From positions 367 through 64,366 of the forward strand of contig CAYPFT010000002.1 of the NCBI GenBank assembly GCA_964410165.1: 64,000 nucleotides of DNA, read 5' to 3'. Positions 2,108 to 54,380 of this stretch are shown here, in pieces. Origin of the DNA: an uncultured Candidatus Saccharibacteria bacterium (GTDB lineage: Bacteria > Patescibacteriota > Minisyncoccia > Phycocordibacterales > CAIJYI01). The notes beneath the pieces were generated by a model. That model ran no database searches and was not told where the DNA came from. It was given only the letters and a program-made list of their open reading frames with translations. Both the position numbers and the translations under genes were made by a program. How positions within the stretch are numbered: position 1 is the stretch's first letter; every line of letters begins with the position of its first letter.

Positions 2108-2500
2108 ATGCCAAATCCATTTTCTCGATTTACCATACAAGACATCATTGACCGCGATGCGGAGAAACTTGAGCCGCATCCGCGCCGCGTATGGGCTGGC
2201 ATCTTTTTTGCCGAGATTGTTTTGATATTCTTTGTGCTGTTGGCCCACTCGTATGTATACAATTACATGCGCACCAACGGTTCTTTTCAGCAGGATGACA
2301 ACCCGCCGGCGGTGACGGGAGCAAAACTTAACCGCAAAGGACTCGCTGAAGTTACCGCAATGTTTGATAAAAAAAATGCCCGGTTTCAAGAACTTCTTCT
2401 CTCATCTCCAGCGGTGGCGGACCCCTCCGCGATGACCGCGACCCAAAACACTCCCGGGGGTATTTCCGTTCAGTCCGGAACGACAACCTCCGCGCAATAG
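2108..2500 (+). CDS. Hypothetical membrane protein, last gene of the pilMNO operon (PilP-like position)
   Basis: One hydrophobic helix and a Ser/Thr/Ala-rich C-terminus. It is co-directional with and 15 bp downstream of pilO. No recognisable motif. Confidence 0.35.
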   Translation: MPNPFSRFTIQDIIDRDAEKLEPHPRRVWAGIFFAEIVLIFFVLLAHSYVYNYMRTNGSFQQDDNPPAVTGAKLNRKGLAEVTAMFDKKNARFQELLLSSPAVADPSAMTATQNTPGGISVQSGTTTSAQ

Positions 2501-2567
2501 CGAACGATTGACTGGCGGTAGAAATGTTGTTAATGTGGAAGACATTCTCTTTGTGTATAGCGGTGAG

Positions 2568-2587
2568 TTTTCCTCCCATAGTTTAAT
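2568..2587 (+). repeat. 20-nt partial duplicate of the tRNA-Arg 5' end plus 4 upstream nt (TTTTCCTCCCATAGTTTAAT)
   Basis: Identical 20-mer at 2738-2757, which is the 5' acceptor/D-arm of tRNA-Arg with its TTTT flank. The upstream copy cannot be folded into a cloverleaf. Confidence 0.6.
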
Positions 2588-2741
2588 CAAAAGAGGATAG
2601 CGAACGAAAACCATGAAGCCCGAAGCCCTAACAGGAATTCTGACTCACGCCACCACAGGAATTGGAAACGGCTGTCATTTGAGTTTCAGTGTATAGATAA
2701 GGGACGGGCATCATGCTTCAGAAGAGAACGGATAAAATTTT

Positions 2742-2813
2742 CCTCCCATAGTTTAATGGATAAAACGAAAGCCTTCTAAGCTTTAGATCCAAGTTCGATT
2801 CTTGGTGGGGGGA
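2742..2813 (+). tRNA. tRNA-Arg (anticodon TCT)
   Basis: Manual cloverleaf fold. Acceptor CCTCCCA/TGGGGGG. D-stem GTTT/AAAC. Anticodon stem AAAGC/GCTTT with loop CTTCTAA, giving anticodon TCT. T-arm CCAAG-TTCGATT-CTTGG. Discriminator A. No encoded CCA. Confidence 0.8.
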
Positions 2814-2893
2814 TGGTATACAAAAAATTGCAAAAAATGAGAAATGAGGTATTCTATTGCAGTACTTGGTGATATGGAAAACAAATAAATTAA

Positions 2894-2966
2894 GGGCGGT
2901 TAGCTCAGTTGGTAGAGCAATTCGTTTACACCGAAAAGGTCAGAGGTTCAAGTCCTCTACCGCCCA
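2894..2966 (+). tRNA. tRNA-Val (anticodon TAC)
   Basis: GGGCGGT TA GCTC AGTTGGTA GAGC; anticodon loop TTTACAC; T-arm AGAGG TTCAAGT CCTCT; 3' acceptor ACCGCCC; discriminator A. Classic cloverleaf. Confidence 0.85.
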
Positions 2967-3262
2967 CAATAAAATCGTCCCGAAAGGGCGATTTTATTGT
3001 GGGCGGTAAGGAAGGCAACTGCTTGCCTTCCGTGAGGACTTGAAGGGCGCAGCGTTGTTTTTGTTTGCCCTGCAAGGGCAAGGCAAAAACCGCGAGCTGG
3101 GGAAGCGAAAAATTTCCGTCAGGAAATTTATTCGTTGACGATGTCCTCTACCGCCCACAAATTACAAAAATAGCGGAGAGACCGCCAAAGGGTGGACTCA
3201 CCGCATTTTTGAATTTGTGGGCGGTAAGTGAATGAACTGCTTCATTCACGTGAGGACTTGAA
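2945..3262. repeat. Two tandem units (~2945-3043 and ~3143-3262) built from the tRNA-Val T-arm/3' acceptor: a direct copy plus an interrupted inverted copy, forming long hairpins
   Basis: GTCCTCTACCGCCCACAA occurs at 2952 (the genuine tRNA end) and again at 3143. Each is followed by TTGTGGGCGGTAAG, a 7-bp-stem hairpin with loop ACTGCT, and GTGAGGACTTGAA, which is the reverse complement of the T-arm. The hairpin stems are GAAGGCA/TGCCTTC versus TGAATGA/TCATTCA; they differ at several positions but are fully compensated. Confidence 0.6.
3165..3215. repeat. Partial copy (~35 bp core) of the MITE family found at 11284 and 49113
   Basis: AGCGGAGAGACCGCCAAAGGGTGGACTCACCGCA closely matches GGCGGAGAGACCGCCAAAGGGCGGACTCACCGACC inside the 49113-49287 element. 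Confidence 0.4.
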
Positions 3263-3421
3263 CGACGGAGGCATGTTTTTTTCGAGGCCGGCAAAAACGG
3301 CCGAGTTGGTGCCCAGACAAACTTTTTCGCAAAAAAATTTAGTCGATGGAAAGACTTCTCTGTTGCAGGCGTGATTGGAAGGCTCGTGTTGTGTTTTTTA
3401 AATAAAGATATTTCGTGTATA

Positions 3422-4330
3422 ATGTCTAACATGCCAGTCCAAAGTCTACAAAAAGCACAACAGTCAGTAACAGAGAATACCCTTCTAGAAATGGAACTTA
3501 GAACCATTTCCGCTGAAATTATACTCGGAGACTGCCTTGAAACTCTTAAAAGGGTGGAATCCAACTCTATTGATCTTATCGTTACATCTCCGCCGTATAG
3601 CGACCAAAGAAGCTCAACTTATGGGGGAATAAAAGCAGACAAATATGTAGAATGGTTTTTGCCAATAACAGGAGAACTTTTAAGAGTGCTGAAGCCAACA
3701 GGAACTTTTGTTTTGAATATAAAAGAAAAAGTTTCTGATGGCGAAAGACATACTTATACTCTTGAACTTATATTAGAAATGCGGAAACAAGGCTGGTTGT
3801 GGACGGAAGAATTTATTTGGCACAAAAAAAATTGTTACCCAGGAAAATGGCCGAATCGCTTCCGTGATGCATGGGAACGGCTTTTGCAGTTCAATAAAGA
3901 AAGAAAATTTAATATGTATCAAGATAATGTCATGGTACCTACGGGTGATTGGGCAAAAACAAGACTAAAAAAACTAAGCGAAACGGATAAAACGCGAGAT
4001 ACTTCTAAAGTAGGGAGTGGCTTCGGTAAAAACATCTCCAATTGGGTAGGTCGAGATATGGCATATCCAAGCAATGTGTTACATTTGGCGACCGAAAGCG
4101 GGAATAAAAATCACAGTGCCGCTTTTCCAAAGGAGTTGCCGAGGTGGTTTATCAAATTGTTTACTCAACCGGGTGATATGGTGCTAGACCCTTTTTTGGG
4201 TTCAGGTACTACGAGTGTCGTCGCAAAAGAAATGGGAAGAAATAGCATAGGTATAGAAATATTGGAAGATTATTATAATCTTGCAAAAGAAAATGTAGAT
4301 ACTACCCAAAACCAATGCGTTTTGTTTTAA
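3422..4330 (+). CDS. DNA methyltransferase (beta-class; N4-cytosine or N6-adenine)
   Basis: Motif IV SPPY (VTSPPYSDQ) precedes motif I FxGxG (DPFLGSGTT); this order is typical of m4C/m6A beta-class enzymes. The gene is very AT-rich compared with its flanks. Confidence 0.75.
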   Translation: MSNMPVQSLQKAQQSVTENTLLEMELRTISAEIILGDCLETLKRVESNSIDLIVTSPPYSDQRSSTYGGIKADKYVEWFLPITGELLRVLKPTGTFVLNIKEKVSDGERHTYTLELILEMRKQGWLWTEEFIWHKKNCYPGKWPNRFRDAWERLLQFNKERKFNMYQDNVMVPTGDWAKTRLKKLSETDKTRDTSKVGSGFGKNISNWVGRDMAYPSNVLHLATESGNKNHSAAFPKELPRWFIKLFTQPGDMVLDPFLGSGTTSVVAKEMGRNSIGIEILEDYYNLAKENVDTTQNQCVLF

Positions 4331-5097
4331 AATATATGCCAAAGCTAGATTATATAGAAATAAATAAATATATTGCCGAGGAGGTTATGAAACCATTTTA
4401 TGAAATCAGGCTTAAGAAACTGACCGAATTAAACCTAAACGCTATTCTGAAAAGAAAAAACCCGTACTTGTTTAAAGCAAAAAACATTGAGACAAGCGGA
4501 GAATTCATCAAGTATATTTTAGACGCGTATCTTTCTTCACAGGAAGAAACAATGTTTGGGAATCTTCTGGAACATTTAGCAATATTTGTTTGCGGTAAAG
4601 CTTTTAAGGGAAGAAAAGCGGAACAGGGTTTGTTGAAAAGCGTTGATTTGGAATTTGAAAGAAATAAAAAATATTATATTGTCGGAATAAAGTCTGGGAT
4701 TTATTGGGGCAACAAGGACCAGATTGACAGAATGAAGTCGAATTTTAAACAGGCAAAAAAAGTACTGAAAAAAAGCGGGGTTTCAAAAGAGATTATCGCC
4801 ATTAACGGTTGTATTTACGGAAAGGACAATAAACCGTTCAAAGCAGATGCCGACCAAGAGCAGAATTATTATAAAATATGCGGACAAGAATTTTGGGAAT
4901 TAATCTCTGGCGACAACGAGCTTTACAAGAATATAATTTTACCTTTGGACAAAGAAGCAAAAAAGAGAAGCGACCACTTCAAGGAGGCATATGCGGAAAA
5001 AACCAATGAAATGGTTAAGGAATTTTCAGATTCTTTCTTAACAAAAAAAGGCGCAATTGACTGGGAAAAAATGATTGATTTTGTATCTAAAAAATAA
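4315..5097 (+). CDS. Putative type II restriction endonuclease (cognate partner of the methyltransferase)
   Basis: Overlaps the methyltransferase stop by 16 bp with the same strand and the same AT-rich composition. No homology could be asserted from sequence alone. The call rests on position. Confidence 0.4.
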   Translation: MRFVLKYMPKLDYIEINKYIAEEVMKPFYEIRLKKLTELNLNAILKRKNPYLFKAKNIETSGEFIKYILDAYLSSQEETMFGNLLEHLAIFVCGKAFKGRKAEQGLLKSVDLEFERNKKYYIVGIKSGIYWGNKDQIDRMKSNFKQAKKVLKKSGVSKEIIAINGCIYGKDNKPFKADADQEQNYYKICGQEFWELISGDNELYKNIILPLDKEAKKRSDHFKEAYAEKTNEMVKEFSDSFLTKKGAIDWEKMIDFVSKK

Positions 5098-5230
5098 AAA
5101 ATTCGACAAACAAACCGTTTCGCCCGTGCTTGTCATCGAAGTAAACGATTCGTCCCAAGTAGGGGAAAAAAGAAAAATAAAATAATCAAAGTTGTGATAT
5201 AGCGGTTCCAACATCCAAACTCCCCACAAT

Positions 5231-5266
5231 AAAGGCGCCAATGGCGCCTTTATACGGTTTTTTAAG
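5231..5266. terminator. Bidirectional hairpin terminator between the restriction gene (+) and the sigma factor gene (-)
   Basis: AAAGGCGCC-AAT-GGCGCCTTT perfect hairpin followed by a T-run. Confidence 0.5.
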
Positions 5267-11283: not shown

Positions 11284-11498
11284 CTCACCTTACGCACGAT
11301 TACTGTATCGGTTTTTGGTCGGTTTCTCCGCCTCTTGGCGGTGGAACCGCCAAAAACTGATACCGGGGGTCGGAGATTTGGCGGTGAGACCTCCAAGAGG
11401 AGCGACCTAAAAAACAAGGAGTGCAACGACTATGTTTTTGGAAGTACTCTTTGTGGTGGACTCACCGACCAAATCTTTCCAGTCGTGCGTAAGGTGAG
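11284..11498. mobile_element. MITE-like non-autonomous element, copy 1 (215 bp)
   Basis: 16-bp perfect terminal inverted repeats, CTCACCTTACGCACGA and TCGTGCGTAAGGTGAG. Flanked by the 7-bp direct repeat TAATTAA (11277-11283 and 11499-11505). The interior is an extended imperfect palindrome. A second copy with the same inverted repeats is at 49113. Confidence 0.7.
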
Positions 11499-17000: not shown

Positions 17001-17279
17001 ATGCGACACATCCCTGAATTTTTTCAACCCATTTTCTGGTCATATGATTTCAGAGCTCTTGATGCCGAAAAGCACAAGAGAACCATCGTGGTTCAGACGA
17101 TTAACTATGGGAGGTGGAAGCACTGGCGATTTATCGCGGACAGGTACGGCAAAAACGGCGTTGCCGAGATAATAGCCTCCGAACCGGCAAGCGCATTTCG
17201 CAAACCAGCGCTTTTCTTGGCGAAGATTCTTTTTAGCGTTGAGAAACAAGCACATGCACTTCGAAGCACTCACAGATAA
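17001..17279 (+). CDS. Small protein upstream of AbiEii-like toxin; putative cognate antitoxin
   Basis: 92 aa, overlapping the start of the downstream AbiEii-like gene. No HTH recognised. Called on position only. Confidence 0.3.
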   Translation: MRHIPEFFQPIFWSYDFRALDAEKHKRTIVVQTINYGRWKHWRFIADRYGKNGVAEIIASEPASAFRKPALFLAKILFSVEKQAHALRSTHR

Positions 17280-17877
17280 AGGAAAAGAAATATTTCCGAA
17301 ACTCTCGCTGTTTTCGGGTTTTTATCTTGCCGGCGGAACAGCGCTTGCGCTTCAAATCGGACATCGCGTTTCCATAGACTTCGATTTTTTTACCGATGAG
17401 AAGATAAAAAAAACACTGCTCGCGAAAGCGGAAAGCATCTTTTCACCGAGCAGTCTTGAGATTTTTGTAAACAACTCGGGCGAACTCACTTTTTCCGTCA
17501 ACGACGTGAAAATCACTTTTCTTACCTATCCTTTTCCGGCGTTGCTTCCAAAAGTAAAAGTAGAAAAAGGCGAGTTTTGGCTCTTGGGCGTAAAAGAACT
17601 TGCCGCTACGAAAGCTTACACGATAGGAAGGCGAGGTGAACTCAAGGATTACATTGATGTATATTTTCTCCTCAAAGAAGGGCATACGACGCTTTTTGAA
17701 ATTTCCGAACTCGCGGAAAAGAAATACGGTGAAGCGTTTGACACAAGGCTTTTTCTTGAACAATTGCTGTATTTGGATGACATAGAAGACGTACAAATAG
17801 AATTTTTGAAAGACCCTGTCGGAAAAGAAGAACTCAAAAAGTTTTTTGAAGGGGAAATAGGAAAAATAAAGCTGTAA
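17254..17877 (+). CDS. AbiEii/AbiGii-family nucleotidyltransferase toxin-like protein
   Basis: FYLAGGTALALQIGHRVSIDFDFF matches the GG-TAL...HR-S-D-D-F signature of the AbiEii family. Confidence 0.65.
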   Translation: MHFEALTDKGKEIFPKLSLFSGFYLAGGTALALQIGHRVSIDFDFFTDEKIKKTLLAKAESIFSPSSLEIFVNNSGELTFSVNDVKITFLTYPFPALLPKVKVEKGEFWLLGVKELAATKAYTIGRRGELKDYIDVYFLLKEGHTTLFEISELAEKKYGEAFDTRLFLEQLLYLDDIEDVQIEFLKDPVGKEELKKFFEGEIGKIKL

Positions 17878-36532: not shown

Positions 36533-36579
36533 CGCTCATTTTCAAAAAACATTTCCCGCACCACTTCCTTGCTTGTTCT

Positions 36580-36623
36580 CCCCTATAGCTTTTTCTAGCA
36601 TATGCTAGAAAAAGCTATAGGGG
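36580..36623. repeat. 44-bp perfect palindrome between convergent argS and spoVR-like genes; probable bidirectional terminator
   Basis: CCCCTATAGCTTTTTCTAGCATATGCTAGAAAAAGCTATAGGGG, perfect dyad centred on CATATG. Confidence 0.6.
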
Positions 36624-36712
36624 AGTTTGTTCAGACGGTACAATGATACAAAGATAAAAAAAGTACGCACCGTTTCGGCGCGCACTGGTCTAAAGAACAA
36701 ATCATTTCCATA

Positions 36713-38245
36713 TTATTTCTTTCCCGATTTCGACGGACATTCGGCGATAAGTTCAACCTTGTCGTCTTCTTTGACCGCCTCAATCCGCACCGGACACTGC
36801 CAGAGCTGGAAGAGGTGTTTGAGCACTTCCGCCGCGCTTTCTTTGTGGAGCGGAACGCGATTGCGTTCCGTATGCCGCAAAGTAAGCGTGCGGTCGTTGC
36901 GCAAATCAACGTTCCATATCTGAATATCAGGTTCGATGGCGCCGATGTCGTACTGACCGGCAAGCGCTCGGCGTACATCGCGGTACCCGTCTTCGTTGTG
37001 GATTGCATTCACAATATAGTTTGCCGTGTCGAGTCCCGGGTAGTCTATTATATGCCACAGCCGCATGTCGCGCATGACTTTCGGAGAAAGATACTGTGAG
37101 ATAAAGCTCTCGTCTTTGAAGTTTTCCATAGTGAACTTCATTGTGGCAAGCCAGTCCGTACCCGCAATATCAGGGAACCACTTTTTGTCCTCTTCCGTCG
37201 GATTTTGACAGATGCGCGGAATGTCGCGAAACATATCGAAGCCGAGAGCGTAAGGATTTATTCCGGAATAATACGGCTTATCCCACGTCGGCTGAAGAAT
37301 CACATTTGTATGAGATACCAAAAATTCCAGCATAAAGCCGTCGTTCACGTATCCTTCGTCGTAGAGATCGTACATGAGCGTGTAATGCCAGAACGTCGCC
37401 CACCCTTCGTTCATGACTTTCGTCTGCCGTTGGGGATAGAAGTACTGCGCAATCTTGCGAACGATGCGCACAATCTCTCTTTGCCATGGTTCCAGAAACG
37501 GAGCGTTCTTTTCGATGAAATACAGGATATTTTCCTGCGGTTCGGTCGGGAAACGCTCCCGCCACTTTTTTTCCGCCTCCTTTTTGATCTTTGGCACCGT
37601 TTTGTCCCAGAGGTCGTTTACCTGCGACTGGAGATATTCCGCGCGTTCTTTCTGCCGCGCCCTTTCTTTTTCGAGCGAAATCGGCGCGGGGCGCTTATAG
37701 CGATCAACACCATAATTGCTTAATGCATTGCATGAGTCCAAAAAGAACTCCACTTCCTCTCGCCCATATTTCTCTTCGCACTCCGCGATATAGCGTTTTG
37801 CGAAGAGCATGTAATCCACGATAGCATCGGGGCTCGTCCACTGACGGAACAGATAATTTCCCTTAAAGAAGGAATTATGTCCGTAGCAGGCATGGGCGGT
37901 GACGAGTTCCTGCATCGCGGAAGAGTTCTCTTCCATAAGGTAGGCAATGCAAGGATTCGAGTTGATAACGAGCTCGTAGGCAAGACTCACATCGCCTCTC
38001 ATGTACGCGCGCCTCGTATTTTCCGCTTCTTTTCCGAGAGACCAGTGATAAAACGATACCGGCAGTCCGATGGATGAATACCGATCTATCATTTGCTCCG
38101 CGGTGATAATCTCAATCTGATTCGGAAACGTCTTGAGGCCGTACTTTTCGCATGCGATCCGCCCAATCACTTCGTTTGCTTTTTGAATATCCTCAATGGT
38201 CCATGCGGAAGATTCGGTAATTAACCGTGATATGTTGTGTGACAT
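36713..38245 (-). CDS. SpoVR/YcgB-family protein
   Basis: 510 aa. Last gene of a prkA-yeaH-spoVR arrangement, and full-length for the SpoVR family. Confidence 0.75.
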   Translation of the reverse strand: MSHNISRLITESSAWTIEDIQKANEVIGRIACEKYGLKTFPNQIEIITAEQMIDRYSSIGLPVSFYHWSLGKEAENTRRAYMRGDVSLAYELVINSNPCIAYLMEENSSAMQELVTAHACYGHNSFFKGNYLFRQWTSPDAIVDYMLFAKRYIAECEEKYGREEVEFFLDSCNALSNYGVDRYKRPAPISLEKERARQKERAEYLQSQVNDLWDKTVPKIKKEAEKKWRERFPTEPQENILYFIEKNAPFLEPWQREIVRIVRKIAQYFYPQRQTKVMNEGWATFWHYTLMYDLYDEGYVNDGFMLEFLVSHTNVILQPTWDKPYYSGINPYALGFDMFRDIPRICQNPTEEDKKWFPDIAGTDWLATMKFTMENFKDESFISQYLSPKVMRDMRLWHIIDYPGLDTANYIVNAIHNEDGYRDVRRALAGQYDIGAIEPDIQIWNVDLRNDRTLTLRHTERNRVPLHKESAAEVLKHLFQLWQCPVRIEAVKEDDKVELIAECPSKSGKK

Positions 38246-39534
38246 TACGCATTCTCCTTTTTTTTGAAGAGTTCATGAAACACCGGATAGATGTCCTTTT
38301 GTTCTCGGATGAATTTCATCGCGAATCGATCTTTAAATACGCTCTCTTCGGCAATCCGCAGATAGTTCGCCCAGAGTTCATCTTGCTTCTCTTTTTCAAT
38401 CTGAACGTAAGCGAAGTAGCGGAGCACAGAAAGAATTTCATTTACCAACATATCTTCGCAGATGTTGGAATCAAGCGACCAGTTCTCTCCATCGGAGGCT
38501 TGCGCGACATATCTGTTCCAAGAAGAGTCGCTGTATCTTTCGTCAATAATCTCTTTCATAAGGCGGAGCCCCGTGGAGACGACCGTACCGCCCGTTTCCG
38601 TGGACTCAAAAAATTCTTTTTCGACCACTTCTTCGGCGATAGTGTGATGCTTGATGAACACCACATCGGTCCGTTCGTAATTTCGTGTAAGGAACAGATA
38701 TAAAAGCAAGAAGAATCGTTTGGCAATATCCTTCCTGTTTTTGTCCATGGAGATCGAGACATCCATAATACAAAACATCACTGCTTGCGCGGTCGGCTCC
38801 GGCACTTTTGCAAATTGCCTGAAACGAAGGTCCGAAGTGTCTATGAACGGAATGCCGCGAAGTTTTTGTTTGAGCAGGGTAATTTCTTGCGCAACGGCAA
38901 TAACCCGCTCCCTTGCTTTTTCGTCCGGATCAGGCAATGCCAAAAGCAGAGCCATCTCCCCCTCAAGTTTGCAAAGGAGTTCCTCCTTATCTTTTTTCCC
39001 GAATACGATGCGCCTTGCAAGCGATTGACGAAAGGAGCGGACAAGGTCGAGGTTCGTCGGATTTCCCGCGGTGGTTATGCCCGCGCGTTTCCATTTGTAC
39101 TCGTCTATGCCTGAAAAGAGCTCGGTCTTTATCATATTCGGAAGTTCGCAGTCCTCAAAATAGATTTCCAAAAATTCTTTGCGGGTGAGGTGAAAAACAA
39201 AATCATCTTCGCCCTCGCCGTCCGGACTGCCTTTCTTTCCGCCCCCGCTTCCTCCTTTCGGGCGGGGGATTTTGTCTCCTGGAATAAAGCGGTCATTGCC
39301 GGGGTGCACATATTCCCGGTTGCCGCCTGTTCCGTGCCGGAATCGCGGTTCTTGAATGCCCTTTTTCGGGATGGTTATATCTTCTCCGTCTTTATGCGAA
39401 TCGGTAATGCTGCCGATCCCGGCTTTTTTCTGCACCGCTTCTTTTATCCACGGTTTCATTCGTTCAATGAATCTTCCACGATTGACGTGGCTGCCTCCTC
39501 CTTGACCTCTTCTGTCTACAATAACGTCGCTCAT
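38245..39534 (-). CDS. YeaH/YhbH-family (DUF444) protein
   Basis: N-terminal Gly/Arg-rich region (RRGQGGGSHVNRGRF ... GGSGGGKKGSPDGEGEDD) followed by a vWA-like C-terminal domain. Lies between prkA and spoVR. Confidence 0.75.
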   Translation of the reverse strand: MSDVIVDRRGQGGGSHVNRGRFIERMKPWIKEAVQKKAGIGSITDSHKDGEDITIPKKGIQEPRFRHGTGGNREYVHPGNDRFIPGDKIPRPKGGSGGGKKGSPDGEGEDDFVFHLTRKEFLEIYFEDCELPNMIKTELFSGIDEYKWKRAGITTAGNPTNLDLVRSFRQSLARRIVFGKKDKEELLCKLEGEMALLLALPDPDEKARERVIAVAQEITLLKQKLRGIPFIDTSDLRFRQFAKVPEPTAQAVMFCIMDVSISMDKNRKDIAKRFFLLLYLFLTRNYERTDVVFIKHHTIAEEVVEKEFFESTETGGTVVSTGLRLMKEIIDERYSDSSWNRYVAQASDGENWSLDSNICEDMLVNEILSVLRYFAYVQIEKEKQDELWANYLRIAEESVFKDRFAMKFIREQKDIYPVFHELFKKKENA

Positions 39535-39622
39535 GGCATTTCTCCCATATTACTCTGTCTTTGAAAAAAATAGGGGCGGCGTCGAAACTTCGAACCACCG
39601 CCCCTAAGCCTTTGACCCCTTC

Positions 39623-41548
39623 TTAGGAACTCTTTCTTACCCGCAGGTACCATTCCGAAAGCAGGCGCACCTGCTTGGGTGTGTAACCTTTCGCTCCCAT
39701 CCGATTCACGAAATCTTCGTGTTTTTTTTGGTCGTCTTTCGACGCTTTCGAGCTGAAAGAAATGACTGGCAAGAGCTCCTCGGTATTCGCGAACATCTTT
39801 TTCTCAATCACCGCCCGCAATTTTTCGTAGCTCGTCCATACCGGATTTTTCCCGCTGTTTTTCGATCTTGCACGAAGTACGAAGTTTACCACTTCGTTTC
39901 GGAAATCCTTCGGGTTTGAAATGCCCGCCGGTTTTTCAATCTTTTCAAGCTCCGTATTGAGCGCCGTTCGGTTGAAACTTTCTCCGGTGTCAGCGTCTCG
40001 GTATTCTTGATCTTGGATCCAGTAGTCCGCATACGTGACATAACGATCGAAAATGTTTTGCCCGTATTCCGAATACGATTCCAGATACGCCGTTTGGATT
40101 TCTTTCCCGATGAACTCGATATAGCGCGGAACGAGATACTCCTTGATGAAACGGAGATAGCGTTCCTGCATTTCCGACGGGAACTGTTCCTGAGCGATTT
40201 GCTGCTCCAATACATAAACCAGATGCACCGGATTCGCCGCCACTTCAGTGTGGTCGAAGTTGAACACTTTGGAGAGGATCTTGAACGCGAAGCGCGTCGA
40301 GATTCCTTCCATGCCCTCGTCCACGCCGGCGAAATCTTTATATTCCTGATAGGATTTGGCTTTCGGGTCGGTGTCTTTCAAGTTCTCGCCGTCATAGGTG
40401 CGCATCTTTGAATAGATGCTCGAATTCTGCGGTTCTTTGAGGCGGGACAAGACGACGAATTGCGCGAGCATTTGGAGCGTCCCCGGAGCGCACGGCGCTT
40501 CGGAGAGCGAGCTGTATCTGAGCAGTTTTTCGTAGATCTTCACTTCTTCCGAAACACGGAGACAATACGGAACTTTCACGACATACACGCGGTCGAGGAA
40601 CGCTTCGTTGTTCCGGTTTCCTTTGAAGGTTTTCCATTCCGATTCGTTCGAGTGGGCGAGAATAATGCCCTCGAACGGAATGGCGGAAAGCCCTTCCGTG
40701 CCTTTGTAGTTTTGTTCTTGGGACGCCGTCAGGAGCGGATGAAGCACTTTGATCGGCGCTTTGAACATTTCCACGAATTCCATGATGCCGCGGTTGCCGA
40801 GGCATAATCCTCCGGAGAAGCTGTACGCGTCCGGATCGTCCTGCGAATAGTGCTCGAGTTTTCTGATATCCACTTTGCCGACGAGAGAGGAAATGTCCTG
40901 GTTGTTCTCATCACCCGGCTCGGTTTTGGAAACGGCGCGCTGGTCGAGCTGCGAAGGGTGGACTTTTACGACGGTAAATTTTGTAATATCTCCCCCGTAT
41001 TCGTGAAGGCGTTTTACCGCCCACGGAGAGGGGATAATGCCGATATATCGGCGCGGAATGTTGTATTCTTGCTCAAGAATTTCCGCATCTTCCGCCGAAA
41101 AAAGTCCGAGAGGCGATTCGTTCACAGGGGATCCTTTGATCATATAGAACGGCTGTTTCTCCATGAGCGATTTGAGCTTTTCCGCAAGCGACGATTTGCC
41201 GCCGCCGACGGGACCCAAAAGGTAGAGGATCTGCTTCTTCTCTTCAAGTCCTTGCATTGCGTGGAGAAAGAACGCGACGATTTTTTGAATGGTTTCTTCC
41301 ATGCCGTAGAATTCCGCGAAAGAAGAATATACGTCAATGACCTTGTTTGCATGGATGCGCGAGAGGCGCGGGTCAAGCCGGGTATCAATGGCGTCCGGCG
41401 TCCCGATAGCAAGCAATTCACGCTCTTGCGGTGTGGCGTAAGCGCTCGGGTCATTTCGGCAAATTTCAAGATACTCTTCCAGAGAATATTCTTGCGCGCG
41501 GGTTTGGTCGTAACGCTCCGTGAGGCGGGTAAATAAACTGGTGTTCAT
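39623..41548 (-). CDS. prkA: PrkA/YeaG-family AAA+ serine protein kinase
   Basis: 641 aa with Walker A LLGPVGGGKSSL and PrkA-type N- and C-terminal domains. First gene of the three-gene operon. Confidence 0.85.
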   Translation of the reverse strand: MNTSLFTRLTERYDQTRAQEYSLEEYLEICRNDPSAYATPQERELLAIGTPDAIDTRLDPRLSRIHANKVIDVYSSFAEFYGMEETIQKIVAFFLHAMQGLEEKKQILYLLGPVGGGKSSLAEKLKSLMEKQPFYMIKGSPVNESPLGLFSAEDAEILEQEYNIPRRYIGIIPSPWAVKRLHEYGGDITKFTVVKVHPSQLDQRAVSKTEPGDENNQDISSLVGKVDIRKLEHYSQDDPDAYSFSGGLCLGNRGIMEFVEMFKAPIKVLHPLLTASQEQNYKGTEGLSAIPFEGIILAHSNESEWKTFKGNRNNEAFLDRVYVVKVPYCLRVSEEVKIYEKLLRYSSLSEAPCAPGTLQMLAQFVVLSRLKEPQNSSIYSKMRTYDGENLKDTDPKAKSYQEYKDFAGVDEGMEGISTRFAFKILSKVFNFDHTEVAANPVHLVYVLEQQIAQEQFPSEMQERYLRFIKEYLVPRYIEFIGKEIQTAYLESYSEYGQNIFDRYVTYADYWIQDQEYRDADTGESFNRTALNTELEKIEKPAGISNPKDFRNEVVNFVLRARSKNSGKNPVWTSYEKLRAVIEKKMFANTEELLPVISFSSKASKDDQKKHEDFVNRMGAKGYTPKQVRLLSEWYLRVRKSS

Positions 41549-49112: not shown

Positions 49113-49287
49113 CTCACCTTACGCACGATTGTGATACCGTACGGTTTCGGCGTAGAATTTTGGTCGGTTTCTCCGCCCCTTGGCGGTGGAACCGCCAAAA
49201 TAGAGCGTCGGAAGCGGAAGATTTGGCGGAGAGACCGCCAAAGGGCGGACTCACCGACCAAATCTTTCCCGTCGTGCGTAAGGTGAG
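49113..49287. mobile_element. MITE-like element, copy 2 (175 bp)
   Basis: Same 16-bp terminal inverted repeats CTCACCTTACGCACGA/TCGTGCGTAAGGTGAG. Flanked by the 7-bp direct repeat AGGATAA (49106-49112 and 49288-49294). The interior is ~85% identical to copy 1. Confidence 0.7.
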
Positions 49288-50426: not shown

Positions 50427-51433
50427 AGCTGTTCTTCCCGCCTGATTTCGTTGTTCTCGTAACTTACCAGTAGAGGAATTCCAAAACTTGCCAAAAGGAG
50501 CGACAGTCCCAAAAAGAGCATGGTGCGGTCGGAAAGTTCGCCGTTTTGGTTTTGGAGAGAAGTTATCGCAGTCCCGAGCGTCGATCCCGAGCTTTCTTTC
50601 AGTGAAGCGTTTTTCGCAGGTTCTTCTTGCGCATGGGCAGAATACGCGAGCGGTGAAGGTGTTTCGTTTATGGTTCTCAAAACCGCCACAAGAGCCGGAA
50701 TCTGGAGATTTTTTTCAGCGCTTGGAGTCGGTAGTGGTGCGGGAGGAAGAGCGGCGGCGGGCGCGGGCGGCGTTTGCCTGCCGGTGATATAGGAGAGCGG
50801 GACGGCTCCTCCGGCCACAGACATCGGAGGCGGTGCCGGCATTTCTTGCACGGTTGCGGTAAGCGCCGTCGGCGCGGGGAGGCGGATGAGGGAAACGTTG
50901 TCAATGGAAAGCGACCCTATTTCGCGGACGAGATGAAAAACGGTCAGCGAAACCGCACCTTCCGGAATCAGAAAAGGGAAAGTTTCATATCCGGTCCATT
51001 CCGGCGATATGACGGATGTTCCGAGATACGCGTACCGATACGCCCCATCCTGAAGCGTGTAGCGGACGACGACATCCGCCGGAACATTCGCAAGATAGTG
51101 CCCCGAAAAAACGTATCGTTCCATCGGCGCCACAGGAATGTCGTCGAAATACCACTTCGCGTCGCCGCTTTCGTAGGAAGTGATTTCTACTTTCGCGGCC
51201 CTCGTGCCATTCGGGCCAAGCACGGGATAGGTGAATACGGCGTTATTCGTGCCCCAAAAGCCTTGACTCCAATACTCGGGAACGCTTGCGTTGCCCGGAT
51301 CTGCCACCTCAAGTCCCGGATTGGCAATCGGGTTTTGGGCGGTGTCCGCGTAAGTTAAAAAAGGCAACAAAAGAATTCCGCCAACAATCATGGCCGATAC
51401 GCTTGATGTAAATCGCAGTATGTTTTTTTGCAT
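50414..51433 (-). CDS. Cell-surface protein with a CBM_4_9-like carbohydrate-binding module, Pro-rich stalk and C-terminal membrane anchor
   Basis: Module NPGLEVADPGNASVPEYWSQGFWGTNNAVFTYPV...DAKWYFDDIPV...TVFHLVREIGSLSIDNVSL is repeated in the neighbouring giant proteins. Also has a poly-Pro/Ala region and a terminal hydrophobic helix. Confidence 0.6.
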   Translation of the reverse strand: MQKNILRFTSSVSAMIVGGILLLPFLTYADTAQNPIANPGLEVADPGNASVPEYWSQGFWGTNNAVFTYPVLGPNGTRAAKVEITSYESGDAKWYFDDIPVAPMERYVFSGHYLANVPADVVVRYTLQDGAYRYAYLGTSVISPEWTGYETFPFLIPEGAVSLTVFHLVREIGSLSIDNVSLIRLPAPTALTATVQEMPAPPPMSVAGGAVPLSYITGRQTPPAPAAALPPAPLPTPSAEKNLQIPALVAVLRTINETPSPLAYSAHAQEEPAKNASLKESSGSTLGTAITSLQNQNGELSDRTMLFLGLSLLLASFGIPLLVSYENNEIRREEQLWEP

Positions 51434-51600
51434 GTTTGAAAATTTGGTTTATAAACTTTTCTTTTTCTTTCGTATCGGTTGCATCATCGCTTCTTTCACC
51501 CCGCCTTCAAGCCGCGGCGGCCGGGTAAGATGGTCTTGTTCCCGCAACAATCTTTTCTTATCCACGATACGTTCGTTTGCTTTCTTTGTTTTCATGGCGG

Positions 51601-52023
51601 TTATTTCTTAATCTCTATCTTCACCGCTTTTTCTTTCGCCCCCGCAATTGCCGGCATCGTTACGATGAGTTCGCCGTTTTCATATTTCGCATCGGCGCGG
51701 GAAGCATCAACAGACTTCGGCAGGCGTATTGAACGCGAGAAAGAGCCTCTTCTAATCTCTTTGCTGTAATAATCTTTTTTTTCCGTTTCCTTTTCCTCCT
51801 CGTGTTTGCCGGAAACCGTGAGTATGTCTTCCTCAAGCGAAATATCAAGCTCCTCAGGTTTTACTCCCGGTAAACTCATCTTTACTGCGATATTGTCTTT
51901 TTCTTCATATACATCCGCCGCAAAATCCATTCCCAAACGAGGAAATGAAGTAAACGGCTGTAAGAACCGGTCGTCGAAAAAGCGATCGATTTCTCTAAAG
52001 GGATCCCGTTTGATTATTTGCAT
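51601..52023 (-). CDS. Hsp20/alpha-crystallin family small heat-shock protein
   Basis: Alpha-crystallin domain (DVYEEKDNIAVKMSLPGVKPEELDISLEEDILTVSG...GSFSRSIRLP...ENGELIVTMP). Confidence 0.85.
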   Translation of the reverse strand: MQIIKRDPFREIDRFFDDRFLQPFTSFPRLGMDFAADVYEEKDNIAVKMSLPGVKPEELDISLEEDILTVSGKHEEEKETEKKDYYSKEIRRGSFSRSIRLPKSVDASRADAKYENGELIVTMPAIAGAKEKAVKIEIKK

Positions 52024-52178
52024 AGGGGTGATTGCATTAAATTGATTTTAATAAATTTCCTTAACGTGATGCTACCAAGCATTTCTGAAAACTTCGTGAA
52101 GAAAAATCCCCCCCGAGGTGAAGTCAAGCAACAAAAACTTGAGTTTACTTGCTGACCGATGTGTTTTGCATTTTCACC

Positions 52179-54329
52179 CTACGGATTCATCCGAGAGACG
52201 CCTTGCGCGACCGTCACCACATCCACATTCGCGGTCCTCACATAGTCCACTATTTGCTGAAAGAATGCGGGAGTAACGCCGAGGTCGTGTTCGGGGTTGG
52301 CATCTTCTTGGTGGAACATGAGAATGAGCCATTGTTTGTTCGCCGCCGCCTGCGCCACCCACGTTTGCACGTCAGTCATGGTGGTGGTACGGTCCATCTG
52401 CTGTATTTTCAGTTCGTATTTGTTCGTGCTTTTCGTATTGAAGCCGCGGTCAACGCTTCTTGCCGCGATAAATCCCGCGTTTTGCGCCATTGTTTCAACT
52501 GAGGCGTTGTAGTCTCCCAAGGGATACGCCATGGTGTCGGGCGTGGTTACGCCCATTCCGAAAAGGTCGTTTCGCGAGCCGACGATTTCATTGTTCGCCG
52601 CGACAGGCGGAACGTTTGTAAGTGAAATGTGCGTTTGCGTGTGTCCGCCTATTTCATGTCCGGCATTTTGAATTTCAAGCATTTGGTTTTGATTGACATA
52701 TATCGGAACCATTTTTAGAGAATAGTTGTCTACGGTGAGGGAGCCGTTATTCCGAAGCAAATGAAAAATCGTGACGATGGCAACATTCGCGGGAATGTTT
52801 ATGGTCTGTGAAAAGTTTTTCCATACCCCGTTTGAAGGCGGAAGGGAAGCTATATCGACAAACTGCACACTATCATCAAGATAGGTGTATCGTACCGTTA
52901 CGACCGAGGCGACGTCTGATTTGTAACTCTCGGTGAGCACGTAGTCTTCGTTCGGCAAGACGGTCGCGTCTTTGAAATACCACTTCGCATCGCCGCTCGC
53001 GTAATTCGCCACATCAATTTGCGCGGCCTTACCCCCATCCGCCCCCGTTACCGGATAGGTGAACGCCGCCGTATTCGTTCCCCACCCCCCGCGGAACCAG
53101 TTTTCCGGGTCGCCGTTTGCACCGGCGGTTTCGAGGGAAGAGTTTTGTATTCTCTCGGTCGGTACCGCCAAAAGTGTTTCTTGACTGACAATATAAAATG
53201 TTCCCTTGAGTCCCGCGGCGTTCAAGATGGGAAGCGCATCGTTGTACTGCGTAATCCACCCGTCATCGAACGTGAACGATACGAGTCCGCGCGAGAACAG
53301 GTCTTCCGGCGGAGGCGGCGTTTCTCCCGGCGCTAGAGAATAGTTATCAACGGTCAGCATGCCGTTCGTGTTGAGGGCGTGGAACACCGTCAGTGCAGTT
53401 GCTCCCACCGGTACGGTAAGATTATAGTTTGCCGTTTTCCACACGCCGGACGCTCCGAGGGATGCGATGAATTGATAGATGAAACCGCTCGGTGTTTGGT
53501 ATCGGGCAACGAGTTCGGTTGGCGCGGTGGATTTGTATGAGTCGGTGAATGAATAGATTTGCCCGGAACTCACCGGCACATCGGCAAAATACCATTTCGC
53601 ATCGCCGCTCGCGTAATTCGTCACGTTAATTTGCGCCGCCTTTCCGCCGCCCGCCCCCGTTATCGGATAGGTGAAAGTTGCGCTGCTCGCTCCCCATTCT
53701 CCGCGGAACCAGTTTTCCGGGTCGCCGTTTGCACCGGCGGTTTCGAGAGAAGGATTCACAATGAGACCCGGCGGAGCAGTCTTTTCCGTCAAAGAAGAGT
53801 TGTCGGTCGTGAGAAAACCAACCGTTTCAATCAGGTGAAAAACCGTTATGAAAGCCGCATCGCTCGGGGTGGTGAAAGTGAATTGCTTGTCGGTTGCAAG
53901 AGATGTCGCCGGCACCGTTCCGAGAAACACATACGAGAATGTTCCCGATGTGCTTTTATACCGAATAGTATAACTCGTTGCGGCATTGGAAACATATCGG
54001 TCGGAAAAAACATATGTTGTGGAGGGGCTTACCGGCACATCGGCGAAAACCCACTTCGCATCGCCATCGGTGTGTGCGCTCATCTCCACGCGCACCGCGC
54101 GCGCCCCGACAAGCCCCGCCGTCGGATAGGTGAAGGCCGCGGTATTCGCGCCCCAGTTTCCCGTACTCCAAGAATCGGGGAGCGTCGCGCCGGTTTCCAC
54201 GGAAGGATTTATTATGAGATTTTCTCCCGCCGCAGAAGCGATACCGGAATACAAGAATGAAACAAAGAGAATCATTGCGGCAAGAGACGATATTCTTTTG
54301 TCGGCTTTTGTGTTCGCTTTTGTTTTCAT
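52179..54329 (-). CDS. Secreted multi-CBM protein with a NodB-type polysaccharide deacetylase domain interrupted by a CBM insertion
   Basis: Four copies of the ~140-aa CBM_4_9-like module. NodB motif 1 FTFDDGW...FYIVS and the His motif HEIGGHTQTH are separated by one complete CBM module. Confidence 0.65.
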   Translation of the reverse strand: MKTKANTKADKRISSLAAMILFVSFLYSGIASAAGENLIINPSVETGATLPDSWSTGNWGANTAAFTYPTAGLVGARAVRVEMSAHTDGDAKWVFADVPVSPSTTYVFSDRYVSNAATSYTIRYKSTSGTFSYVFLGTVPATSLATDKQFTFTTPSDAAFITVFHLIETVGFLTTDNSSLTEKTAPPGLIVNPSLETAGANGDPENWFRGEWGASSATFTYPITGAGGGKAAQINVTNYASGDAKWYFADVPVSSGQIYSFTDSYKSTAPTELVARYQTPSGFIYQFIASLGASGVWKTANYNLTVPVGATALTVFHALNTNGMLTVDNYSLAPGETPPPPEDLFSRGLVSFTFDDGWITQYNDALPILNAAGLKGTFYIVSQETLLAVPTERIQNSSLETAGANGDPENWFRGGWGTNTAAFTYPVTGADGGKAAQIDVANYASGDAKWYFKDATVLPNEDYVLTESYKSDVASVVTVRYTYLDDSVQFVDIASLPPSNGVWKNFSQTINIPANVAIVTIFHLLRNNGSLTVDNYSLKMVPIYVNQNQMLEIQNAGHEIGGHTQTHISLTNVPPVAANNEIVGSRNDLFGMGVTTPDTMAYPLGDYNASVETMAQNAGFIAARSVDRGFNTKSTNKYELKIQQMDRTTTMTDVQTWVAQAAANKQWLILMFHQEDANPEHDLGVTPAFFQQIVDYVRTANVDVVTVAQGVSRMNP

Positions 54330-54380
54330 ACGGAAGTTGAGTTTACATGAGGCGGATAATGATTGCGTGAAGTTATGAAG

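Follow-up and report, generated by a model that had tools for sequence, protein, structure and literature searches.

Two tandem, structured units directly downstream of a tRNA-Val(TAC) gene on contig CAYPFT010000002.1 of an uncultured, groundwater-type member of the Patescibacteria, of which a 64-kb stretch was analysed (hereafter the window), are probably non-autonomous miniature integrative modules of 190–220 bp that carry no genes, are specific for tRNA 3' ends and are moved in trans. Insertion polymorphism between genomes, the repeat structure, covariation of the stems and conservation above the coding level were all observed. The units belong to a previously undescribed family of ~200-bp gene-less modules, and the tRNA-Val site that they occupy marks the landing spot of larger foreign islands. 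Patescibacteria have tiny genomes with few recognised mobile elements, and their acquisition of islands such as restriction-modification systems is, to our knowledge, poorly known. tRNA 3' ends serve here as integration points for both Rep-plus-serine-recombinase elements and the small structured modules.

Anatomy and covariation of the units

The features of the locus, in window coordinates, are as follows.

2741–2814, + strand: tRNA-Arg(TCT), upstream neighbour (ARAGORN, Rfam)
2894–2967, + strand: tRNA-Val(TAC), 3' end ...ACCGCCCA-CAA, encoded CCA absent (ARAGORN, Rfam)
2947–2969, + strand: left arm of forked palindrome A and proximal att-like copy (repeat analysis, folding)
2970–2996, no strand: unit A apical hairpin TAAAATCGTCCCGAAAGGGCGATTTTA (repeats, folding)
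2997–3044, + strand: inverted copy A (b' 2997–3008, AG, hp1, CGT, a' 3034–3044)
3011–3017 / 3024–3030, + strand: stem of hp1 of unit A, loop ACTGCT at 3018–3023
3045–3142, + strand: unit A body, extended hairpins hp2 (~3052–3093) and hp3 (~3105–3135)
3143–3160, + strand: direct repeat GTCCTCTACCGCCCACAA of the tRNA-Val 3' end (repeat analysis, folding)
3161–3214, no strand: unit B apical region, an imperfect hairpin with a 31-nt MITE-core fragment (3173–3203)
3215–3262, + strand: inverted copy B (b' 3215–3226, AG, hp1, CGT, a' 3252–3262)
3229–3235 / 3242–3248, + strand: stem of hp1 of unit B, loop ACTGCT at 3236–3241
3263–3361, + strand: unit B body, hp2 (~3274–3298, weak in this copy) and hp3 (3319–3340)
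3362–5203, + strand: restriction-modification islet, GC ~0.37, starting where the distal repeat of unit B is missing
3371/3431–4330, + strand: N4/N6 DNA methylase, islet gene
4315–5097, + strand: EcoO109I-family endonuclease, islet gene
5204–5252, + strand: islet right end GGTTCCAACATCCAAACTCCCCAC|AA, then a terminator hairpin (homology to serine-recombinase elements)

A sequence-only reading of this DNA had described two tandem hairpin units derived from the tRNA-Val 3' end, and the observation proved real overall, with all main elements present. The direct copies of the tRNA 3' end that it placed after tRNA-Val are exact and 18 nt long: the 64 kb contain GTCCTCTACCGCCCACAA just two times, at 2952–2969 (in and just past tRNA-Val) and at 3143–3160, against a chance expectation of 0.03. 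The second of these serves both units at once, closing unit A as its distal att-like copy and providing forked palindrome B with its left arm. The left arm of palindrome A consists of the T-loop and T-stem 3' strand of tRNA-Val (a, TTCAAGTCCTC) followed by the acceptor 3' strand and trailer (b, TACCGCCCACAA). The inverted copies, described as split by a hairpin with a conserved loop, correspond to the 48-nt pattern TTGTGGGCGGTAAG-N7-ACTGCT-N7-CGTGAGGACTTGAA, again found exactly twice in 64 kb (2997–3044 and 3215–3262; chance 0.00). Each reverse-complements the final 23 nt of tRNA gene and trailer together (TTCAAGTCCTC|TACCGCCCACAA) and is interrupted precisely at the T-stem/acceptor junction by AG-hairpin-CGT.

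Each unit comprises a forked palindrome, two more covarying hairpins and a direct repeat of the tRNA end, the distal repeat having been lost in unit B, and neither contains any ORF. The size first given, ~100–120 bp, was too small, the actual repeat period being 191–218 bp. The feature had likewise been ended too early, at 3262; the second unit runs on to 3361, where it terminates in a stump of the distal repeat (GACTTCTCT, 3353–3361). The rest of that repeat is gone, and homology to other type-B units ends after CTCT. On either strand the apical hairpin of unit A has the look of a terminator, and it differs from the terminator found at empty sites in relatives; it is supplied by the insert and replaces the original tRNA flank. 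A and T tracts flank the apical hairpins on each side, and a simple terminator scan did not flag 2970–2996 on the + strand. An earlier proposal that the units are terminators could fit the apical hairpin only, which covers at most 27–54 nt of each ~200-nt unit. On the 5' side of tRNA-Arg(TCT), repeat analysis and comparison with the locus L008 revealed a separate and different tandem partial-copy unit (2568–2740).

Folding of the exact sequences gave extended pairing: both modules form forked hairpins whose z lies between -12 and -15, whether they are folded as DNA or as RNA and whichever strand is taken, and the forked palindrome folds equally on both strands. The hp1 stems (GAAGGCA versus TGAATGA) differ at 5/7 positions, not four as originally counted, and all five differences are compensated. 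Across seven sequences, with only 7–10 independent unit copies at hand, 93% of cells were paired and compensatory double changes occurred in 24/55 pairs, a level of covariation matched by 0/500 shuffles, while slid controls paired at only 39–53%. Within hp1, 8/9 pairs showed compensatory change and all were Watson–Crick; G.U pairs were rare in the hairpins overall (~4 in ~280 cells). The inference from compensatory change to selection on structure, already drawn for hp1, holds and now extends to three hairpins in the seven sequences. Unit B identity between genomes was 78–88%, compared to 70–78% for the adjacent YkuD gene, and units were more conserved than a coding gene in 9/10 genome pairs.

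Empty and occupied sites at tRNA genes

Patescibacteria relatives carry 0, 1 or 2 units at tRNA-Val, confirming that unit number varies at this locus. At empty sites (L008/L027, L026, L009), tRNA-Val ends in ACCGCCCA-CCA and is followed by its own terminator with no unit; in L008/L027 and L026, synteny with the window extends to either side. At L004/L024, L025 and L030, the tRNA ends in CAA and the CCA end is found distal to one unit, with the hairpin after the displaced CCA end visible in L030. Displacement of the old CCA end and terminator to the far side of the unit is a classic signature of site-specific integration. Order varies as well: A then B in the window, B only in L024, L029 and L030, A only in L006, and B followed by an A remnant in L005. 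The body of unit A is homologous to the L006 unit and to this 50-nt remnant in L005 (94% identity). A direct repeat of the tRNA end bounds the insert in the window (18-nt exact) as well as in L004/L024, L006, L009, L010, L029 and L030; the repeats are target-specific and 14–19 bp long, and in every case repeat identity stops exactly at ...CCCAC. L005, like window unit B, lacks the distal repeat, and both retain an intact 5' part. Serial site-specific integration, one of several explanations originally offered, is therefore well supported by the empty sites, the variable number and order of units and the displaced CCA end and terminator.

The same architecture was found after other tRNA genes. 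In L009 it follows tRNA-Ser(TGA), where the inverted copy (CGGAGGCG-hairpin-GGTGAGATTCGAA) and the repeat both match tRNA-Ser; the inverted copy is the exact complement of the tRNA-Ser 3' strand (GGAGGCG) and not a copy of the 5' strand (GGAGGTG). L025 combines a Leu-like tRNA end with a matching inverted copy, the remainder being 100% identical to L024, and the unit that follows tRNA-Leu in L010 is degenerate, its repeat being Leu-like and its b' and hp1 absent. The module family thus aims at several tRNAs, demonstrating retargeting.

Several contigs begin or end within a unit or at the tRNA end (L005, L025, L030, L033, L035, L036); the units break metagenome assemblies at tRNA genes and could pass for tRNA pseudogenes. 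Among the loci compared, we found no excised form and no exact empty/occupied pair inside one species. The unit pattern had 0 matches in one-genome-per-species contigs and 0 in viral contigs, and the units had no Rfam, phage or plasmid match. Two of five metagenome matches (L002 and L003) were chance matches within a kinase gene, and matches of the tRNA-end 16-mer in viral contigs were chance coding-region matches plus one unrelated tRNA fragment (L017). No homologues were detectable for the 130-aa protein encoded upstream of the tRNAs.

Could the units be passive debris, that is, decayed island ends with duplicated tRNA flanks and terminators and no function of their own? Compensation would then be mechanical, produced by intrastrand template switching that corrects imperfect palindromes, and conservation would reflect recent spread or gene conversion. 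We regard this as unlikely. Palindrome correction would be expected to leave hairpins that are almost purely Watson–Crick, as observed, but the imperfect basal extensions of hp2 and hp3, with their internal loops, covary too (helices 4 and 7), and the non-palindromic linkers are conserved. Decay is visible in the L010 copies and in the lost repeat and weak hp2 of window unit B, and tRNA-proximal junk arrays have been documented in other systems; however, the same multi-part architecture recurs at three tRNAs, in diverged subtypes (A, B and Ser-type) with a constant hairpin junction, and unit identity exceeds that of the coding gene in 9/10 genome pairs.

A structured non-coding RNA may instead be the selected entity, with the DNA repeats as by-products of the gene's origin, a reading that appears somewhat improbable though not negligible. 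In one version, a + strand molecule would be closed by two stems, one acceptor-like (b' paired to the distal repeat) and one resembling the T-stem (a' paired to the repeat), hp1 replacing the D and anticodon arms, yielding a mimic of the tRNA top half ending in ACCA; in another, an antisense RNA to the 3' part of pre-tRNA-Val, trailer included, would affect tRNA maturation. RNAalifold gives a closed multi-helix fold that covaries between types A and B, the distal end ACCGCCCACCA is present in L024 and L030, and a conserved G stands opposite T in the trailer stem of L024, L025 and L029. Yet the inverted copy fits the upstream tRNA copy better than its own distal repeat in 6/7 cases, matching at 24/24 (or 23/24, 22/24) positions, trailer bases included, where the neighbour is the tRNA itself; the acceptor-like closing stem of L025 would have 2 mismatches, and window unit B and L005 have lost the 3' partner while keeping the 5' part. 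Stems vary, but neither the single-stranded linkers nor the hp1 loop ACTGCT does, and the units are more conserved than the neighbouring coding gene; on the other hand, there is no Rfam match even at E<=10. G.U pairs slightly exceed A.C pairs on the + strand (~5 versus 2) and are very rare for an RNA. From the sequence, terminator-like hairpins bracket the units on both sides and no consistent promoter is visible on either strand. If the fold does work as RNA, it would represent a new tRNA-linked RNA family.

A closed tRNA-like RNA gene (5' GGGCGGT...ACCGCCCA 3') was rejected as the primary reading and retained as a rival. The 5' strand of L025 tracks the upstream Leu-like tRNA instead of the 3' end of its own unit, agreement with the upstream copy takes in trailer bases and T-loop that are absent from the distal repeat, the Ser-type copy complements the 3' strand with no copy of the tRNA 5' strand, and window unit B and L005 are without the 3' partner. 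In Rfam searches, the two tRNAs alone reached the gathering threshold and nothing credible appeared at E<=10 in 2500–3500; ARAGORN found no tmRNA. Neither program supported a tmRNA, Y RNA or ribozyme.

A candidate recombinase and the restriction-modification islet

In the integrative explanation that we favor, the window units would be tandem members of a module family in Paceibacterota-like Patescibacteria, type A proximal and type B distal. Entry would occur by site-specific recombination, inside the common core ...CCTCTACCGCCCAC| or at its right border, the incoming module swapping the tRNA's encoded CCA and terminator for its own CAA and hairpin, and the former tRNA 3' end would be pushed outward to persist as the direct repeat. 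Because newcomers would insert beside the tRNA, units stack up. The parts of a module are the apical hairpin, the inverted tRNA-end copy, two extended hairpins and the direct repeat. The inverted copy, which reverse-complements the final ~23 bp of the target tRNA gene exactly and has a junction hairpin whose stem is free to vary, forms the forked palindrome with the tRNA end.

Since the modules carry no genes, the enzyme must come in trans. No recombinase, the search for which had been suggested as a check, was found in the 64-kb window, either by tblastn with the serine recombinase and Rep or by a Pfam scan of 30 window ORFs, which covered tyrosine recombinases. The best candidate is the large serine recombinase (LSR) of Rep-plus-recombinase elements in the same bacteria. 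These elements integrate at the same tRNA-Val end, and their junction falls on the same nucleotide as that of the units. In L036, the recombinase ORF runs out in antisense of tRNA-Val with the junction CCCAC|ATTG; L037 and L039 show a like arrangement at tRNA-Gln. In L029, a Rep-plus-recombinase element lies directly upstream of unit B, the recombinase end of the contig stopping short of any tRNA. The junction position ...CCCAC| is identical in L036 and all units, although the likeness of the arms to P/P' is weak (an AGAAA.ATCG stretch only). The units showed no sequence similarity to the non-coding parts of the recombinase elements L029, L036 and L037.

We infer that the LSR is the mover, that the units are still mobile and that it is single-stranded or cruciform DNA, not RNA, in which the folds may operate. 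The att-bounded structure without recombination genes fits a cis-mobilizable element that would be moved in trans or by accretion; polymorphism between genomes bears on such movement only indirectly. If they ride actively with the recombinase, the units would rank with the smallest site-specific integrative elements known and would illustrate in nature how target specificity is re-set between tRNAs. Besides the lack of a recombinase in the scanned window sequence, of an excised form and of an exact empty/occupied pair among the loci compared, the weak likeness of the arms and the small number of independent copies, three points weigh against this explanation. First, the units match the tRNA over 14–19 bp, whereas serine-recombinase attP and attB usually have few bases in common and such long identity is more typical of tyrosine integrases. 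Second, a ~200-bp double-stranded circle is a poor recombination substrate. Third, most relatives carry type B at one and the same position, so that it may be old, vertically inherited and not currently mobile; if old and conserved, it calls for a function beyond recombination.

The restriction-modification islet had been viewed as cargo between the att-like cores. It is indeed inserted DNA, absent from syntenic relatives, but it is not bounded by the two 18-mers, running instead from 3361/3362 to 5204–5229. The islet and the serine-recombinase element have a common ~65-bp right end: the segment 5204–5252, with the end motif at 5204–5229, shows homology to the distal (P-arm) end of such elements, and it is a diverged look-alike of the tRNA 3' end. 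The best reading of these similarities is that the islet may be a decayed Rep/serine-recombinase-type element in place of the unit B repeat, leftover repeats perhaps serving as secondary landing sites for elements of the LSR type. Putative inverted repeats at both islet ends were too weak to call.

The inverted copy might also act as a guide, a proposal we consider doubtful, in which a folded single strand, DNA or RNA, would pair over ~23 nt with the target tRNA 3' end. The hairpin would mark the exchange point and the target would be chosen by base pairing, moving from Val to Ser or Leu by changing this stretch. Such a guide would play a role similar to that of the bridge RNAs in IS110 or the guide bases in IS608, differing in its tRNA-gene target and trans-acting enzyme.

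Comparison with known elements

Folded single-stranded sites are known from integrons (attC) and from the forked-hairpin attP of CTX phage and other Xer-dependent elements. The attC and CTX-type folded recombination sites are reportedly the subject of Bouvier et al. 2005 and Val et al. 2005. As in these sites, two inverted core copies in the units pair into a bulged or branched stem with a variable tip, structure is conserved while sequence varies, and both inverted copies stay at one end of the insert. In contrast, the units target a tRNA gene end and not attI or dif, their arms mimic the target tRNA over ~23 bp, and a single-stranded stage is hypothetical for them. The earlier suggestion of attC-like sites survives as that analogy, in the forked palindrome and variable tip, while integron membership is largely refuted. 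It is very improbable that an integron integrase recombines the units as integron-type cassettes or attC sites: tandem imperfect palindromes with variable tips and a side bulge recall folded attC, but no integron integrase or other tyrosine recombinase was present among the 30 scanned ORFs, the tRNA-derived arms lack RYYYAAC/GTTRRRY boxes, there are no ORFs between sites and the array is anchored on a tRNA gene, not attI.

Two further identities were rejected. A retroelement primer-binding site would complement a mature CCA end, and the complement here reads ...TTG or GTG, corresponding to the gene trailer. For a homing spacer of a CRISPR-transposon, repeats and cas genes were absent and the match is split by a hairpin.

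Tandem islands are found at ssrA in Dehalococcoides, with the LSR encoded beside attL (PMC3146451), and at tRNA 3' ends in Prochlorococcus tycheposons (bioRxiv 10.1101/2020.12.28.424599). The units resemble both in their tRNA-like 3'-end integration, in boundary direct repeats, in the displacement of older insertions by newcomers and in the partial-tRNA remnants that pile up. However, those islands are kilobases long and gene-bearing, and no conserved, structured module of ~200 bp is described among their remnants. In the present family, conservation lies in the module as such, which is found again at several tRNAs. An inverted att-core copy split by a hairpin, present in the units, is not known from those islands (PMC3146451; bioRxiv 10.1101/2020.12.28.424599). 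Cis-mobilizable elements (CIMEs) are att-bounded, lack integrase and transfer genes and move by accretion with a neighbour (PMC5704250; term in PMC3146451). Like CIMEs, the units are non-autonomous, have attL/attR-type flanking repeats and lie in tandem with autonomous elements using the same site. CIMEs, however, arise by deletion from conjugative elements, measure several kb and have no defined secondary structure, whereas the units are ~200 bp, consist almost entirely of covarying hairpins and have a putative mobilisation.

Lastly, the units resemble MITEs in being small, non-coding, structured and non-autonomous. They differ in having no terminal inverted repeats and no short fixed target duplication, and they are not dispersed: a covariance model search for further units recovered just two copies in 64 kb, both at the tRNA. 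A true MITE is present in the same window, at 11284–11498 and 49122–49287. As the sequence-only reading had noted, the second unit encloses a fragment of the MITE core, 31 nt long (3173–3203) and 97% identical to 49226–49256.

Tandem units behind tRNA-Val

Two tandem gene-less units, A (proximal) and B (distal), follow tRNA-Val among these features of the window:

27-2500, pilM/N/O-like genes
2741-2814, tRNA-Arg(TCT)
2894-2967, tRNA-Val(TAC)
3371-5097, restriction-modification islet with a DNA methylase (N4/N6) and an EcoO109I-family endonuclease, GC ~0.37
after the islet, minus strand, sigma-70 gene
after the islet, L,D-transpeptidase (YkuD) gene

Judged by its tRNA-Val and by how its proteins are named, the host belongs to the Patescibacteria (Paceibacterota/Parcubacteria-like). 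In line with the sequence-only reading, the direct copy of the tRNA-Val 3' end (18-mer GTCCTCTACCGCCCACAA) has just two occurrences, starting at 2952 and 3143, where 0.03 would be expected. The inverted 48-nt pattern with its 7+6+7 hairpin likewise has two, starting at 2997 and 3215, against an expectation of 0. The inverted copy corresponds, as reverse complement, to TTCAAGTCCTC|TACCGCCCACAA, a span covering the T-loop, T-stem 3' strand, acceptor 3' strand, discriminator and two trailer bases, and is interrupted by AG-hairpin-CGT exactly at the T-stem/acceptor junction. In each unit the tRNA-end copy, an apical hairpin and the inverted copy form a forked hairpin whose z-scores lie between -12 and -15 for either strand, whether folded as DNA or as RNA, bearing out the extended pairing expected from the sequence. 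The stems of the splitting hairpin (hp1; GAAGGCA vs TGAATGA) are fully compensated as claimed, differing at five of seven positions rather than the reported four. The units are longer than the ~100-120 bp proposed, since A/B homology runs ~100 nt further with a period of 191-218 bp, and unit B ends at 3361. A fragment of a MITE core was confirmed within the second unit, where a 31-nt piece (3173-3203) lies in the apical region; the MITE itself, whose ends carry the inverted repeats CTCACCTTACGCACGA...TCGTGCGTAAGGTGAG, is found at 11284-11498 and 49122-49287 with differing internal lengths.

Tandem units of another kind, each ~170 nt, were observed on the 5' side of tRNA-Arg(TCT), at 2568-2740 in the window and at 2030-1690 (minus strand) in a relative's contig, L008, which carries two. 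Each opens with the 5' part of tRNA-Arg, copied over 20 nt in the window and over as much as 32 nt, to the anticodon stem, in L008, and closes with promoter-like GTATAAAATAGGG..GGGCATCATGC. They may stem from integration or duplication in mirror image at this neighbouring tRNA.

Empty and occupied sites in relatives

Loci in other genomes and metagenomes (L numbers) came from a metagenome scan with the inverted pattern (three real loci, L004, L005 and L006), an exact-tRNA scan of species genomes (four, L007 to L010) and contigs encoding YkuD-protein orthologues (L024-L035). Empty sites (L008/L027 and L026) were syntenic with the window on both flanks; there and in L009, tRNA-Val reads ACCGCCCA-CCA and is followed by its own terminator. 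A single type-B unit occupied the site in L004/L024, L029 and L030, and one type-A unit in L006. The window carries A then B, and L005 carries B followed by a 50-nt A remnant with 94% identity to window A. The L033 and L035 contigs start within a unit's distal end or shortly ahead of it. At type-B-occupied sites tRNA-Val ends in CAA and the hairpin of the unit, and the distal repeat ...TCCTCTACCGCCCAC-CA in L024, L025 and L030 is the CCA end of the uninterrupted tRNA; in L030 a hairpin resembling that of empty sites comes after this repeat. Repeat identity constantly stops at ...CCCAC. This insertion polymorphism, sampled in about ten independent copies from fragmentary metagenome contigs, is the footprint of textbook site-specific integration into a tRNA gene end, with newer inserts closer to the tRNA. 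Unit number varies among relatives, and the recombination-site reading put forward from the sequence thus passes the check that came with it.

Six independent metagenome contigs (L005, L025, L030, L033, L035 and L036) have an end within a unit or at the 3' end of tRNA-Val, which suggests that assemblies are systematically broken by these repeats or by strain differences at the site.

Pairing, conservation and exchange of tRNA-matching ends

The inverted copy was closer to the upstream tRNA-end copy than to its own distal repeat in window A, window B, L024, L025, L006 and L009, the distal match being lower in 6/6; the exception was L029, where a large element is inserted in between. With the tRNA as direct upstream neighbour, matches reached 24/24 (window A, L006), 23/24 (L024) and 22/24 (L025) and took in trailer bases and T-loop, supporting the register originally proposed. 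The neighbour of window B is the unit A repeat, without T-loop, so its match is only 13/13 plus 7/11. A closed tRNA-like RNA is argued against by the better match to the upstream copy than to the distal repeat.

In a seven-sequence alignment 93% of cells were paired, compared to 39-53% with slid partners, and 24 of 55 pairs showed compensatory double changes; none of 500 shuffles attained the observed values. Eight of nine hp1 pairs are compensatory, all Watson-Crick, and covariation extends to the two extended body hairpins (hp2, hp3), also when type A is compared with type B. Val-type units do not vary in the hp1 loop ACTGCT or in several linkers. G.U pairs are scarce, with ~4 among 280 hairpin cells, and the two strands fold equally well; in this small sample that agrees better with DNA-level pairing, or with a requirement that each strand can fold, than with a typical RNA. 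We consider it unlikely that the units are a structured RNA, whether one mimicking the top half of a tRNA or one antisense to pre-tRNA; an Rfam search gave no match to the units. Functionless debris with mechanically corrected palindromes would display compensated stems, an explanation we consider quite unlikely. Between genomes unit B is 78-88% identical, above the 70-78% of the adjacent YkuD genes, so it is under constraint or has recently spread. Phage and plasmid collections held no similarity to the units.

A covariance model built from seven units detected only A and B in the 64-kb window and a new copy in L009, directly after tRNA-Ser(TGA). Here the module has been retargeted: the part order is unchanged and both tRNA-derived parts fit tRNA-Ser (inverted part CGGAGGCG-hairpin-GGTGAGATTCGAA; distal part CTCACCGCCTCCG). 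Its inverted copy complements the tRNA-Ser 3' strand (GGAGGCG) exactly; the 5' strand of the tRNA reads GGAGGTG, and a decayed tRNA duplicate is therefore ruled out. Starting at the hairpin, L025 and L024 are 100% identical, but L025 has a Leu-like tRNA end (TCCCGGGCACAA) with a matching inverted copy (TTGTGGCCGGGA, 11/12); it is a short-read contig and conceivably a chimera, with the Leu-type block itself real sequence. L010 has degenerate units after tRNA-Val and tRNA-Leu, the latter with a Leu-like repeat, and a body hairpin is common to L035 (Val repeat) and L009 (Ser repeat). These comparisons point to a modular body with exchangeable tRNA-matching ends. An inverted copy acting as a base-pairing guide would be new in kind, and we regard this as very unlikely.

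Recombinase elements and the nature of the units

Integrative elements encoding a rolling-circle Rep (Phage_CRI or REP_ORF2-G2P) and a large serine recombinase were found in the following contigs:

L029, 1-6240
L036
L037, 2840-9734
L038-L045

The ~6-kb L029 element precedes unit B, encodes a large serine recombinase, a rolling-circle Rep (Phage_CRI), an HTH protein, a kinase and a TPR protein, and ends in GTTCCAACATCGTCCCAAACTCCCCAC|AA. Its close relative in L036 exposes the opposite junction, CCCAC|ATTG, and the recombinase ORF there continues into tRNA-Val antisense (...ATGTGGGCGGTAGAGGACTTGAACCTCTGA); homologous Rep-recombinase pairs are placed likewise on tRNA-Gln in L037 and L039. The CCCAC| junction is the same nucleotide where the repeats of all mini-units end. 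Because the last ~10 recombinase codons are the antisense strand of the target tRNA 3' end (tRNA-Val or tRNA-Gln), the protein's C-terminus differs between the integrated and the excised element. The recombinase belongs to a family with >4000 homologues at E<=1e-20; several of those scoring best carry a Patescibacteria annotation.

The islet has a ~65-bp terminal sequence in common with these elements at its right end (5204-5229), then a terminator, and its start (3361/3362) cuts the unit B distal repeat after CTCT. It can be read as a decayed recombinase-type element that landed on a unit's repeat; tblastn and a Pfam scan of 30 ORFs found no recombinase in the window. In L005 two units are broken at the equivalent position and opposite-strand ORFs come after, different from the N4/N6 methylase and EcoO109I-family endonuclease pair of the islet. 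One of these L005 ORFs reads as a putative cytosine methylase; if confirmed, restriction-modification or methylase genes would recur as cargo at this hotspot.

We lean towards the units being gene-less miniature integrative modules for tRNA 3' ends that would be moved in trans, perhaps to this day, with a serine recombinase as leading candidate. Counting against such modules, a shared stretch of 14-19 bp is rare for serine-recombinase sites, recombination works poorly on a 200-bp circle, and type B may be an old insert passed on by vertical descent. The forked palindrome and two body hairpins could form a folded att site like that of CTX phage or like integron attC, a single-strand signal such as an origin tied to the rolling-circle Rep, or putative protein-binding sites. 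That the units are integron attC sites, which such folding recalls, is highly improbable.

The closest known systems to these putative integrative modules are islands arrayed in tandem, and remnants of partial tRNAs, at tRNA or tmRNA genes (the ssrA islands of Dehalococcoides, with a serine recombinase, PMC3146451; tycheposons, bioRxiv 10.1101/2020.12.28.424599) and att-only cis-mobilizable elements. The units differ from all of these in their ~200 bp size, conserved multi-hairpin fold and target-matched inverted copy split by a hairpin, which recur at three tRNAs. A literature search found no description of such modules.

Elsewhere in the window, a perfect 48-bp palindrome (36578-36625; 24-nt arms, no spacer) lies between arginyl-tRNA synthetase and SpoVR-like genes, and a three-gene PrkA/DUF444/SpoVR-like cluster (36713-41548) seemed unexpected for a small Patescibacteria genome. 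An AbiEii-family nucleotidyltransferase toxin gene (17239-17877; type IV toxin-antitoxin/abortive infection) adjoins copper-ATPase and multicopper-oxidase genes. Long internal repeats of 47-300 nt, with eight copies of a GGATAGGTGAA...CCCCA motif, occupy 51225-58316 and 59324-60004 within very large minus-strand ORFs (716 and 1361 aa) that probably encode repetitive surface proteins.
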